Shown: positions 24,997 through 32,370 of the stretch, piece by piece | Position numbering within the stretch: position 1 is the stretch's first letter | Layout of the letters: each line of letters begins with the position of its first letter | NCBI GenBank assembly: GCA_016715865.1 | Contig: JADJXM010000006.1 | Span: 257,564 to 321,563, forward strand | Direction: 5' to 3' | DNA from: Acidobacteriota bacterium | GTDB lineage: Bacteria; Acidobacteriota; Blastocatellia; RBC074 | DNA length: 64,000 nt | Position numbers and translations under genes: made by a program | The notes under the pieces: model-generated | Databases searched by the model: none | The model's input: only the letters and a program-made list of their open reading frames with translations | What the model was told of the DNA's origin: nothing

Positions 24997-26772
24997 ATGG
25001 GCAACGATCACGATCCAAACAGTCCGACGATGCCATTCACTGGCGATCTGAAACCGACGCAGCCGGAACCTGCGCCGGGAGAGCCCGGGACCATGCCGCT
25101 GACGACGGGCGCGTATCTCGGAGTCCTGCTCAAAGACCGGTATCTGATCGAAAAAGTGATCGGCAGCGGAGGAATCGGCGTCGTCTACAGCGCCCGCGAC
25201 AGGCAATTGATGAACCGGCAAGTCGTCATCAAGGTGCTCCACCAGAGCCTGCTCGGGACTGAACTCGGCGAATGGTTCAAAAAGAAATTTCAGCTCGAGA
25301 TCGAAGCGCTTTCGCGGATCGATCACCCCGGGGTCGTCGGAGTCTTCGATACCGGCAAGATGCCTGACGGGCGAACATTTCTCGTCATGCAATTCGTTGA
25401 CGGAATCACGCTGCGGTCGGCGATCCCCGAACGCGGGATGGATTTTTCAATGATCGCCCGGCTGATCAGACAGATCGGATCGGCTCTCAGCGCGGCGCAC
25501 GACAAGGGAGTCCTGCACAGGGATATCAAGCCCGAGAACATTATGCTGCAGGAGCTCGGCGGCGGCGAGCATCAGGTCAAGCTGATCGATTTCGGCATCG
25601 CACAGGTGACCGAACCTCAATCCGACATGCCGGCAACGCAGGTCACCAAGATTTCAGGCTCTGTACCCTATATGGCGCCGGAGCAGTTGCGCGGACGTCC
25701 GTCAAAATCCAGTGATATATACGCGCTTGGAGTTGTCGCCTACGAGATGGTCACCGGACTCCGCCCATACAATGCCGAAACAGTGGTCTCGATGTACGAG
25801 GAACAGCGAGACGGTCCGAGCCGTTCCATGCGCGACTTGCGCCCTTCTCTGCCTGCCGCGGCGGAAGCCTCGATTCTCAAAGCGCTGGCTTTCGACAAGA
25901 ACGACCGGCATGCGACCGTACGGGAATTCACTGAGGAACTGGCTGACATCCTGATCGAGGAAAGCGGCGGCGCCATCACACGCAGTGCTGAACGCCGGAC
26001 CGGCGAACCGGTCCGGCCGATCACGACTCATAGCAACGAAAGACGCGCGACGACGGTTGAAGGCGAAACAAGAGTCGAGGCTGTCGAAGAAAAGAAGGGA
26101 CTTCCGGCCCGGCTGCCTGTGATCGGTTCGATACTGGTGCTGGCTGTGATAGCGATCTGGATATTCATGCGCACCGGTTCGATGACGCCGGCAACTCCGG
26201 CTTCGGCGCCGGAACCGACTCTGCCCGCACGCTCGATGAATTACTGGGCGACCGTGCAGAAATACAGGGATGGCCGGCCGTATGAGGCCCCATTCAAACT
26301 TCCCGGCGACATCATCTTCGAGAAGGATTACAGGGTCCGCTTCTCATTCAGTGGCGCAGAGAACGGTTTTCTGTACCTGATCAACGAAGGCCCGCAGCCG
26401 GTCAATAACCTTCCGGCGTATGTCGTCCTCTTCCCGAAACCCTCAGTCAATCAGGGCTCGGCTGAGTTATCGGCCAAACAGGAGATGAGCACTCCTGAAT
26501 TCCTCTTCGATACTGAACAGGGGACAGAGAAGCTCTGGCTCGTCTGGGCAACGAAGGCGGTCTCCGAACTTGAAGCCGTCAAAGGCGTGGTCAATCCCAT
26601 TGATCTGGGCGCGATCACCAGCCCCGATCAGATCAGGTTGGTCGAAACTTTTCTTAAACGCCATTATTCCAGCGAAAAAGTTAATATCACCAAAGACGAA
26701 GTGAACAAACAGATGGCCGTTAGATCCCAGGCAGAAATCATGATCCATTTGCTCAAGCTGGAGCATCATTGA
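24997..26772 (+). CDS. membrane-anchored Ser/Thr protein kinase with extracytoplasmic DUF4384-like domain
   Basis: Hanks kinase motifs: GSGGIGVVY (P-loop), VIKVL (Lys), [11 protein letters not shown] (catalytic loop), DFG, APE; single TM ([12 protein letters not shown]); C-terminal ~200 aa domain with RVRFSF...GFLYLIN...YVVLFP motif. Confidence 0.85.
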
Positions 26773-26847
26773 GCATGGAGTACCGCCTTCAGGCGGGTTT
26801 TGCCCTGTGCCGTGGTACTACCCGCCTGAAGGCGGTACTCCATGCTC
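26771..26847. repeat. 28-bp perfect inverted repeat (hairpin with 21-nt loop) between kinase and CHAT genes
   Basis: gagcatggagtaccgccttcaggcgggt ... acccgcctgaaggcggtactccatgctc. Confidence 0.85.
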
Positions 26848-26920
26848 AAATATTGCGGGCAACCATTTCTCCACGGGCGTCAATCTAAGCCCACGATCGA
26901 GCGGTCATAGGTGAGCAACC

Positions 26921-30982: not shown

Positions 30983-31924
30983 ATGGGAAGAAAAATGATC
31001 AGTAGTCATGTGATTCAATATTTGTTGATTCCTGTATTTGCCTTCGGATTTCAGTATACAGGACTGGCTCAGGACCCTGAAACCGGCACGCGGCGAATCT
31101 GGGACACCGAGCTGGTCAAGGCGAAGGCCGCCAGCAACACCTCGCCCGGAAAGACGACGCCGCGACGCCGCTATCGTGTGGTGACGCCCCGGATAAACAC
31201 CGAGGGAGTTTCGGACAATGCGGTCCTCGGAGTCACGATCTGGCGGCTCCGCCCGTCAACTCAAACAGATGACAATTCAGTCCGCATCCTTAAACACAAG
31301 AGCGACAATTCCAATATCGCCTCGTGGACTCCTGAACGGATCTCGGCCGAAACCCCGCTTTCGCCGGGTCAGCGCGTTCGCCTGAGCATCGAAGCGGCCA
31401 GAACCGGATACTTGTATGTCGTCGATCGTGAACTTTTTGCCGACGGCACTATGAGCGATCCCTGGCTCATCTTCCCAAGCACGAGCATCGGCGGCGGAGA
31501 AAACCAGGTCACAGTCGGTCGCCTAGTCGATCTGCCCGGCCTGAACGACGATCCGAACTATTTCACGCTCGACCCGAGCCGACCGGATCAGATCGGAGAA
31601 CTGCTCAGCGTGATCATCTCGCCGGAACCGCTGCCCGGTCTCAAAGCCGGCGCCGAGCCGATAAAACTTCCTTCGGATCAGGTGACACAGTGGGAGAAGC
31701 AGTGGGGCACAAATGTCGGCCAGCTCGACCTGGAAGGCGGGGCCGGAACCACCTGGACCAAAGAAGAGAAGGAGGCTGGCCAGACCGATGCCAGAAAACT
31801 GACCGGCAATGCACCCTCCCCGCAGACGCTCTTCTATCGCCCGGGCACAAAGCCGGATGCTCCGCTGCTGATCAACCTTCGCCTGAGTTACGGCAAAGCA
31901 AAGCCGGCAGCTCGAAAGAAATGA
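30983..31924 (+). CDS. secreted DUF4384-like protein
   Basis: Signal peptide; segment QRVRLSIEAARTGYLYVVDRELFADGTMSDPWLIFPS aligns with kinase C-terminal domain ([22 protein letters not shown]...YVVLFPK). Confidence 0.5.
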   Translation: MGRKMISSHVIQYLLIPVFAFGFQYTGLAQDPETGTRRIWDTELVKAKAASNTSPGKTTPRRRYRVVTPRINTEGVSDNAVLGVTIWRLRPSTQTDDNSVRILKHKSDNSNIASWTPERISAETPLSPGQRVRLSIEAARTGYLYVVDRELFADGTMSDPWLIFPSTSIGGGENQVTVGRLVDLPGLNDDPNYFTLDPSRPDQIGELLSVIISPEPLPGLKAGAEPIKLPSDQVTQWEKQWGTNVGQLDLEGGAGTTWTKEEKEAGQTDARKLTGNAPSPQTLFYRPGTKPDAPLLINLRLSYGKAKPAARKK

Positions 31925-31965
31925 TAGACATGGATGGAATTTATATGATCGGAATAAGTTGTAAA

Positions 31966-32370
31966 ATGATTTTTGTGCTAGCTCTCAGCTTCGGCGCCAT
32001 GTGCAGCGCAAAATCAACGGATGGAACCAATGATCCACCGCAACGCCTGCGACCACCCGCATCACTGAAATGCTCTCGCGATCATCTGACATCTTTCCAG
32101 GGACGAATCATCGATTACAAACGTGGTGAAAAAAGCATTTTTCTCAGCGTTCGCACCGATGAAGAGACGACTGAAAATTTCACACTGAAATGGGAAGATA
32201 CCGAAAATGCCGAAAAATGGTTTCTTCTTCGCGGAGAAGAGTTTAAAGCCGAAGACTGGAAGCTGATAGAAAGCGCTCACGGCAGGCTGGTCGACGGCAT
32301 GCGAATCATCGTCTGGGTCTGCGACGACGGATCGAAGCCGGTCTTTGACTGGCGCCCGAAAGAAAGTTAA
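31966..32370 (+). CDS. small secreted hypothetical protein
   Basis: Signal peptide MIFVLALSFGAMCSA; ~135 aa; several upstream in-frame ATGs so start uncertain; overlaps end of previous gene in other frame if longest ORF is used. Confidence 0.4.
   Translation: MIFVLALSFGAMCSAKSTDGTNDPPQRLRPPASLKCSRDHLTSFQGRIIDYKRGEKSIFLSVRTDEETTENFTLKWEDTENAEKWFLLRGEEFKAEDWKLIESAHGRLVDGMRIIVWVCDDGSKPVFDWRPKES

Follow-up and report, generated by a model that had tools for sequence, protein, structure and literature searches.

A candidate protease-coupled envelope signalling module of Blastocatellia combining a DUF4384 receptor kinase, an exported TPR-CHAT protease and an exported DUF4384 paralogue

A cluster of four co-directional genes occupies positions 24997-32370 of a 64,000-nucleotide stretch of DNA from an Acidobacteriota bacterium of the Blastocatellia (assembly GCA_016715865.1, contig JADJXM010000006.1, positions 257,564 to 321,563), referred to here as the window. 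We conclude that this operon probably encodes a protease-coupled envelope signalling module of Blastocatellia, in which a DUF4384 receptor kinase is joined by an exported TPR-CHAT protease and an exported DUF4384 paralogue. A preliminary description of the same DNA had proposed a signalling system from four + strand open reading frames (ORFs), and all four lie where it had placed them, encoding proteins of 591, 1319 and 313 amino acids (aa) and a small ORF product. With an amidase gene immediately upstream, the cluster forms a run of five co-directional + strand ORFs at 22.6-32.4 kb, ordered amidase, kinase, TPR-CHAT, DUF4384-like protein and small ORF (Table 1).

The gene order is conserved well beyond the window. 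When one genome per species was scanned, relatives of the 313-aa protein were found encoded in 415 stretches, and synteny was analyzed by tblastn of the window proteins against the best 80 of these 415 loci, all from metagenome-assembled genomes, whose usable taxon labels name Acidobacteriota (Blastocatellales, Pyrinomonadaceae, Chloracidobacterium). Among the 69 loci that include 1.5 kb or more of upstream DNA, 58 have a TPR-CHAT gene immediately 5' of the DUF4384-protein gene, the two being separated by a median gap of ~50 nt (30 nt or less, or overlapping, in 20/60 loci). Where more than 7 kb of upstream DNA was available, a kinase with a DUF4384 tail adjoins the CHAT gene in 36 of 43 loci. 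Of the other seven, six have no CHAT gene 5' of the DUF4384 gene; in the seventh, locus L047, an additional TPR-CHAT paralogue intervenes and the kinase sits further upstream. Every CHAT-bearing locus with enough upstream sequence (37/37) has the kinase. Overall, kinase, TPR-CHAT and DUF4384 protein are a recurrent triad in Blastocatellia, in the same order and on the same strand. The preliminary description had staked its proposal on such co-occurrence and on DUF4384 matches to the two proteins, and neither a loss of co-occurrence nor families without DUF4384 matches were encountered. Between clades, identity is ~32% for the kinase domain, ~45% for the ectodomain, ~57% for CHAT and ~48% for the DUF4384 protein; the better conservation of the predicted periplasmic parts suggests a conserved sensor with a rewired cytoplasmic output.

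The kinase has the architecture expected of a single-pass receptor. All 39 orthologues contain exactly one strongly hydrophobic 19-mer, located 210-232 aa from the C-terminus, and with one transmembrane (TM) helix per kinase the DUF4384 domain behind it is predicted to be extracytoplasmic. This agrees with the earlier proposal of one TM helix and a ~200-aa ectodomain, the window protein having a single hydrophobic peak followed by a 196-aa domain. A Pro/Ala-rich linker joins the TM helix to the DUF4384 domain. On the cytoplasmic side, K79, HRD 174-176, N181, DFG 198-200 and the APE-motif E229 are invariant in 39/39 orthologues, and with this catalytic apparatus intact the kinase is expected to be active. 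The kinase C-terminus (window 26758-26769; 36 orthologues aligned) also carries a nearly invariant L-x-L-E-H-H motif, placed by a structural model in the last beta-strand, and metal binding or docking are possibilities for its two conserved terminal His residues.

A DUF4384 domain in both the kinase and its secreted partner had been claimed from short motifs, all of which are present (...YVVLFP in the kinase tail; RVRLSIEAARTGYLYVVD...WLIFPS in the 313-aa protein). For the window copies themselves the claim is not borne out: against PF14326 the 313-aa protein scores 18.4 bits (E 0.0023), under the 27-bit gathering score, and the 196-aa kinase tail has no Pfam match, DUF4384 included, even at E<=10, nor any NCBIfam match specific to it. 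At the family level the claim stands. PF14326 is matched by 34 of 36 orthologous kinase tails (E<=0.01, best 2e-8) and by 26 of 27 orthologues of the 313-aa protein (best E 3e-6), and hhalign aligns the kinase-ectodomain profile with the 313-aa-family profile over 99 columns (probability 96.9%, E 1.3e-10). BLASTP of the window pair gives 20% identity over 74 aa (E 9e-5), and tblastn with the 313-aa protein independently finds the kinase tail in four loci at ~1e-6. Furthermore, the order of secondary-structure elements agrees between models of the two proteins. These comparisons indicate that, at the family level, the prediction of a shared DUF4384 fold holds. The 313-aa family is large, with 989 database proteins at E<=1e-3, many annotated PF14326, and a 27-sequence alignment has a mean column identity of 61%. 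Searches with the kinase ectodomain, as single sequence or profile, returned only short orthologous fragments and did not reveal distant DUF4384 architectures.

The preliminary assignment of the 1319-aa protein as a TPR protein with a CHAT His/Cys protease domain is confirmed by strong Pfam matches (Table 1). The CHAT domain scores 234 bits against a cut-off of 24, which places it in clan CD, and the catalytic His, the Gly that follows it and the catalytic Cys are invariant in 61/61 sequences. With the dyad intact the protease is expected to be active; invariant catalytic residues thus lead us to expect activity from CHAT and kinase alike. A TPR_MalT match also spans aa 484-731. Against PDB sequences, the full-length protein matches only TPR proteins (LGN/Pins-type), and the CHAT-domain profile has separase as its best match (E 0.2), with neither DdvA nor Csx29 recovered (DdvA none at E<=1). 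In locus L047 the two TPR-CHAT paralogues are arranged in tandem (1632-5063 and 5139-9104) between the kinase and DUF4384-protein genes.

Export of this protease, which the preliminary description had placed in the periplasm, is supported by its N-terminal region. In 35 of 41 orthologues the start codon is followed by a hydrophobic h-region ahead of the first conserved domain. The first 188 aa of the window protein have no Pfam match even at E<=10, and 13 of 22 orthologues weakly match the PPC domain PF04151 (E<=0.05, best 1.8e-4; no match for the window copy). PPC is a domain typical of secreted proteases. Since signal-peptide-like N-termini are conserved and a weak PPC-like N-domain recurs, an extracytoplasmic placement of TPR-CHAT is supported. 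Similarly, 73 of 78 orthologues of the 313-aa protein have signal-peptide-like N-termini by a hydrophobicity heuristic, and in both families most of these segments end in A-x-A or A-Q, right before the first conserved residues. In the 313-aa family, the first residues behind the signal peptide form an invariant (D/E)xTR(K/R)LWD motif.

Neighbouring regulators point to the output of the module. In 31 of 38 kinase loci, gene tables and tblastn place an extracytoplasmic function (ECF) sigma gene whose end meets or overlaps the kinase start. This sigma factor belongs to TIGR02999 (Sig-70_X6)/Sigma70_ECF, scoring 218 bits against a cut-off of 126, and 32 of 34 sequences have HTLQTTALINEAY or HTLQPTALINEVF as their sigma-2.2 region; the motif, HTLQ(T/P)TALINE, agrees with the QTTA phospho-acceptor consensus of ECF43. 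In the EcfP and EcfK systems, a neighbouring Hanks kinase phosphorylates the Thr of the sigma-2.2 motif and so activates the sigma factor (PMC13147305, PMC8999054). By its sequence, the ECF43-type sigma ties the putative module to this known kinase-to-sigma phosphorylation pathway. CHAT genes have also been noted in the neighbourhood of the ECF54 group. Six of the seven loci without an upstream ECF gene belong to the window's clade, defined by a kinase-domain identity of at least 50% to the window, and in the seventh, L079, the ECF gene lies on the other side of the cluster. An FHA-GAF-sigma54 activator stands inside or beside the cluster in window-clade loci L012/L083, L018 (11306-13234) and L088 (7988-9934). 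FHA domains are classic readers of phospho-Thr, and the activator is a plausible phospho-Thr-dependent output of the kinase where no ECF sigma is present. The earlier signalling interpretation is strengthened by both the ECF43-type sigma of the sister clade and the activator of some window-clade loci.

We picture the periplasmic TPR-CHAT protease and the two DUF4384 domains as a sensory apparatus whose interplay would set kinase activity. The soluble DUF4384 protein may dock on the TPR array through its disordered, invariant TRKLWD peptide, where it would either be cleaved as a substrate or restrain the protease in a securin-like manner. TPR-CHAT would then be released or activated by an external cue, which is probably a protein, and would cleave or remodel its DUF4384 partners, possibly the kinase ectodomain or the flexible Pro/Ala-rich juxtamembrane linker. 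This event would switch the cytoplasmic kinase to phosphorylate a transcription factor, which would be the ECF43 sigma in the sister clade and possibly the FHA-sigma54 activator in some window-clade loci.

Proteolytic or securin-like coupling is favoured because DUF4384 is repeatedly linked to clan-CD proteases. The domain is fused to orthocaspases and to kinases (PMC6426788, PMC8283722), and it forms the C-terminal domain of some Csx30 proteins. Csx30 controls an ECF sigma and is itself cleaved by the TPR-CHAT protease Csx29; the Csx29 cleavage site in D. ishimotonii Csx30 lies in a C-terminal domain described as a beta-barrel, not DUF4384 (bioRxiv 10.1101/2022.08.17.504292). The invariant TR(K/R)LWD peptide argues for the same coupling, since it is of the kind bound by TPR grooves or protease sites. 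So does the anti-sigma factor DdvA, whose periplasmic TPR-CHAT region is proposed to be a self-cleaving site-1 protease and whose proposed trigger is proteolysis of a flexible juxtamembrane linker (PMC11506125), because the kinases here have a comparable linker. Finally, L012/L083 retain the kinase while a Peptidase_C25 gene (4876-7464, - strand) and an FHA-GAF-sigma54 activator gene (7982-9958, + strand) replace TPR-CHAT, both lying between the kinase and DUF4384-protein genes. The C25 product is a secreted peptidase of the gingipain family, again clan CD, and may be a non-orthologous replacement of the protease, a single case that is suggestive of the same coupling. We also advance, with low confidence, a broader proposal: DUF4384 might be a dedicated docking or substrate module for clan CD proteases, uniting the orthocaspase fusions, Csx30 and this operon, with the free TPR-CHAT cleaving or releasing the kinase ectodomain and the soluble paralogue serving as decoy or inhibitor. 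If true, bacteria would possess an analogue of protease-activated receptor signalling, with sigma-factor phosphorylation downstream of it.

Several observations weigh against the module as proposed. The window's own clade has no adjacent ECF sigma, and tblastn at 1e-6 detected no homologue of the ECF sigma or of the FHA-GAF-sigma54 activator in the 64-kb window; a working of the window locus like that of Ser/Thr kinase (STK)-ECF43 pairs is something we infer from orthology only. Signal peptides were called by start codon and h-region hydrophobicity, not by SignalP. Moreover, 11 of 69 loci have no TPR-CHAT directly upstream of the DUF4384-protein gene. Eight of these 11 contain a lone DUF4384-protein gene (for example L013/L085), with neither TPR-CHAT nor a DUF4384-ectodomain kinase in the fetched flank, and L016 shows only a distant Hanks-kinase match; the protein can therefore occur outside the module. 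In L051 the CHAT gene lies immediately downstream of the DUF4384 gene, not upstream, and in L006 a distant TPR-CHAT lies 3.6 kb downstream.

A serious rival to proteolytic coupling, although one we consider unlikely, holds that DUF4384 binds a ligand such as a glycan, a peptide or an envelope component. The kinase would sense this ligand directly, and the soluble paralogue, as a binding protein or adaptor of the periplasm, would recruit the ligand, or a foreign protein bearing it, to TPR-CHAT, which would degrade the stimulus and not the DUF4384 proteins. This would suit a domain that is a C-terminal accessory of many kinases and orthocaspases and occurs beside sensor-type domains (FGE-sulfatase, GUN4), and the periplasmic TPR-CHAT of DdvA has itself been proposed to sense a protein signal. 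Fold neighbours of the DUF4384 models include carbohydrate-binding and macroglobulin-type sandwiches (the Wzt carbohydrate-binding domain, GbpA, MG domains), but the similarity is generic and ligand-binding residues cannot be named. Moreover, the invariant disordered N-terminal peptide looks closer to a motif for docking or cleavage than to a portion of a ligand pocket.

Two further explanations were considered. The products could be exported enzymes for protein or peptide turnover or nutrition that are loosely co-regulated, with the kinase regulating only their expression and no coupling at the protein level. The window neighbourhood is indeed rich in exported hydrolases and peptide uptake functions (amidase, M43 peptidase, S8 fragment, OPT transporter), but these neighbours are clade-specific and the triad persists with entirely different flanks; a shared sensor fold, a TPR scaffold of 13 or more repeats and tight CHAT-DUF4384 spacing would also be unexpected for a bulk-degradation protease. 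We regard this explanation as improbable. Still further down we rank intracellular abortive infection, in which kinase and caspase-like effector would kill the infected cell. CHAT and caspase-like proteases are generally known to act in Craspase, CBASS and gasdermin systems, and the kinase domain matches the PD-T4-6 and mad6 kinase models of PADLOC. These PADLOC matches, however, reach only the generic Hanks kinase domain and generic TPRs, with none to the CHAT region, the DUF4384 protein or the small protein, and assignment to a known anti-phage defence system of PADLOC-DB was rejected on this basis. Predicted export of protease and partner, and a conserved, syntenic, chromosomal and not patchy locus across two families, make such a role very improbable. 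A sensor in the envelope that detects attacking phages or predators and switches on defence genes, by analogy with DdvA and PknS-EcfK, may nevertheless be a version of the protease-coupled signalling module that we favour.

Table 1. Features of the cluster and the gene upstream of it (window coordinates)
Feature	Position	Strand	Remarks
Penicillin-amidase family (Ntn-hydrolase) gene	22657..24993	+	Penicil_amidase Pfam E 6e-139; signal-peptide-like N-terminus
Receptor Ser/Thr kinase gene	24997..26772	+	591 aa; predicted cytoplasmic Hanks kinase, one TM helix, DUF4384-like ectodomain
Hanks-type kinase domain, aa 51-304	25147..25908	+	Pkinase E 4e-42, 144.8 bits
Single TM helix, aa 373-391	26113..26169	+	sole Kyte-Doolittle peak >=1.6 in the protein
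Predicted extracytoplasmic DUF4384-like domain, aa 396-591 (196 aa)	26182..26769	+	Ig-like beta-sandwich, one helix, three C-terminal strands
Putative exported TPR-CHAT clan-CD cysteine protease gene	26921..30880	+	1319 aa
TPR-CHAT signal peptide, aa 1-28	26921..27004	+	read from the sequence; followed by QK
PPC-like N-terminal beta-sandwich, aa 30-150	27008..27370	+	weak PF04151 matches in orthologues
TPR array, ~aa 166-740, roughly 13-16 repeats	27416..29140	+	TPR_12 E 1e-75, eight stretches
CHAT protease domain, aa 981-1317	29861..30871	+	CHAT (PF12770) E 3e-69
Catalytic His1179	30455-30457	+	in CHAT domain
Catalytic Cys1228	30602-30604	+	in CHAT domain
Secreted DUF4384-like protein gene	30983..31924	+	313 aa; signal peptide aa 1-29; beta-sandwich body
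TR(K/R)(L/I)WD motif, aa 36-41	31088-31105	+	invariant, in disordered N-terminal segment
DUF4384 core of secreted protein, aa 127-198	31361..31576	+	PF14326 E 0.0023; aligns to kinase ectodomain
Small secreted protein gene	31921..32370	+	<=149 aa, start ambiguous; clade-specific accessory

The genes bordering the triad in the window are confined to its close relatives. Only 3 nt separate the amidase stop codon from the kinase ATG, and an amidase 5' of the kinase occurs only in window-clade loci (L003, L005, L008, L012, L018, L021, L088). At the other end, the ATG of the small ORF overlaps the stop codon of the DUF4384-protein gene as ATGA. Homologues of the small protein (51-88% identity) lie directly downstream only in L001, L002, L008, L012/L083 and L015; the L083 orthologue has a clear signal peptide, and the protein has zero matches in Pfam, NCBIfam and PADLOC. 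Amidase, small secreted protein and M43 peptidase were considered as core parts and rejected, all three being restricted to the window's clade. The genes for exported hydrolases and peptide uptake that flank the cluster are, besides the amidase, a Peptidase_M43 (32459-33457, - strand) and an OPT oligopeptide transporter (35161-37449, - strand), and a short ORF (34114-34812, - strand) encodes only the start of a subtilase S8 domain and is possibly a fragment. Ahead of the amidase, an ArsR/HTH_20 regulator (20877-21224, + strand) is encoded, followed by a 338-aa protein (21417-22433, + strand) whose only match, a weak one near the C-terminus, is 2Fe-2S ferredoxin-like (E 1.4e-4). A promoter and terminator scan found terminator-like sites at chance level only and promoter-like sites modestly over expectation (9 vs 3.9 +/- 2.1), which is uninformative.

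Additional genes were seen in related loci. Pyrinomonadaceae-type loci have an extra + strand gene for a ~130-150-aa protein between the kinase and TPR-CHAT genes (L046 ~5534-6461, L087 6152-6547, L027, L039, L043, L058, L070, L080). The protein has no NCBIfam match and no obvious signal peptide. Its two subtypes have in common a G(S/T)W(S/T)AQA motif at the C-terminus, and one subtype also has an acidic tail; the protein may be an additional component of the system or a substrate. The window lacks this gene, its kinase and CHAT genes being only 148 nt apart. Also absent from the window is a gene that directly follows the DUF4384-protein gene in 12 of the fetched loci, representing 11 distinct places, and that encodes a ~235-aa protein with an N-terminal zinc-ribbon-like CxxC...CxxC and several hydrophobic segments (L088 11128-11835; homologues in L004, L007, L008, L009, L010, L013, L015, L017, L047), including loci that have neither TPR-CHAT nor kinase.

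In L005 (1913-3999) and L008 (1837-4046), a two-gene insert splits the amidase from the kinase, encoding a ~450-aa P-loop ATPase (GNNGAGKTT) and a ~260-290-aa HNH-like protein (CxxC...HDxEH) that by eye resemble a Septu-type defence pair. This 2.3-kb insert was rejected as part of the cluster and looks like an unrelated insertion. Between the TPR-CHAT and sigma54-activator genes of L088, a called 207-aa gene (6304-7066) consists of about four near-identical ~52-aa units and is probably a tandem DNA repeat rather than a real protein. Several loci (L002, L003, L005, L006, L009-L011, L015, L016, L018) are titled 'uncultured Heliomicrobium sp.' or 'Heliobacteriaceae bacterium', which are Firmicutes names; with genes 50-94% identical to Blastocatellia ones, these labels are probably wrong.

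The module bears on several wider questions. DUF4384 is widespread, being fused to kinases, orthocaspases and some Craspase substrates, and the operon gives the domain a testable role. The module also suggests one route by which ECF43-partnered receptor kinases may sense their signals. DdvA of Myxococcus is the only characterized periplasmic TPR-CHAT protein, to which the operon would add a kinase-based wiring in Acidobacteria. Acidobacteria are an abundant soil phylum that is genetically little studied, and the module is widespread in a major soil lineage. Because the parts are small, only three in number and can be handled separately, and because the catalytic residues are invariant, the module lends itself to direct biochemical reconstitution.

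Among characterized systems, the closest are the STK-ECF43 pairs PknT-EcfP of Vibrio parahaemolyticus and PknS-EcfK of Xanthomonas citri, in which the receptor is likewise a Hanks kinase that crosses the membrane once and carries its sensor domain outside the cytoplasm. The likeness extends to the TIGR02999 sigma factor carrying QTTAL or QPTAL that adjoins the kinase in most related loci (PMC13147305; PMC8999054). In contrast to these pairs, the sensor domain here is DUF4384, and for the characterized systems neither a periplasmic TPR-CHAT protease encoded alongside nor a free sensor-domain paralogue has been reported. The window locus, with an amidase and no ECF gene directly upstream, falls outside the group. 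DdvA-DdvS of Myxococcus xanthus shares a periplasmic TPR-CHAT region with a His/Cys dyad that serves as the extracytoplasmic arm of an ECF-sigma pathway, and DdvA-like proteins have been reported only in Myxococcota and one Comamonas (PMC11506125). Unlike DdvA, the TPR-CHAT protein described here appears to be free and exported, with a cleavable-looking signal peptide and a PPC-like domain and without a zinc-binding anti-sigma domain or TM fusion. The membrane relay would be a kinase in place of an anti-sigma factor acting with RseP, so that the extracytoplasmic TPR-CHAT is the only feature the window protein shares with DdvA-type anti-sigma factors.

Craspase (type III-E CRISPR: Csx29, Csx30, Csx31, RpoE) likewise combines a TPR-CHAT protease with an ECF-type sigma output, and DUF4384 is the C-terminal domain in one of seven Csx30 C-terminal-domain groups (bioRxiv 10.1101/2022.08.17.504292). 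Craspase, however, is cytoplasmic and RNA-activated via Cas7-11, whereas the proteins here are predicted to be exported and a kinase would intervene between sensor and sigma. Ten genes within and beside the cluster were profiled and none is a cas gene, a scan that did not extend to the remainder of the window; the neighbours are the amidase, kinase, M43 peptidase and OPT transporter, and the protease carries an export signal, which sets the operon apart from Craspase. Fusions of DUF4384 to orthocaspases (Peptidase_C14), which are clan-CD proteases, and to Hanks kinases also bring the domain together with both types of enzyme (PMC6426788, PMC8283722, bioRxiv 10.1101/2025.01.12.632604). Those fusions are single polypeptides, whereas here the protease is of the CHAT type and linked in trans through the operon, and the domain occurs twice. 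The preliminary description regarded the system as undescribed, which holds within the literature searched: no description of the triad was found in work on DUF4384, periplasmic CHAT, TPR-CHAT with sigma or kinase, and ECF43, the main ECF43 survey lying outside this coverage. Overall, the module would operate as an STK-ECF43 pathway does, but with a protease arm in the periplasm as an addition, and it is a member of none of STK-ECF43, DdvA-DdvS or Craspase. The individual pairings are already known from STK-ECF43 systems, from the periplasmic TPR-CHAT of DdvA and from DUF4384 in Csx30; what appears to be new is their combination as a receptor kinase, a free periplasmic TPR-CHAT protease and a DUF4384 paralogue.

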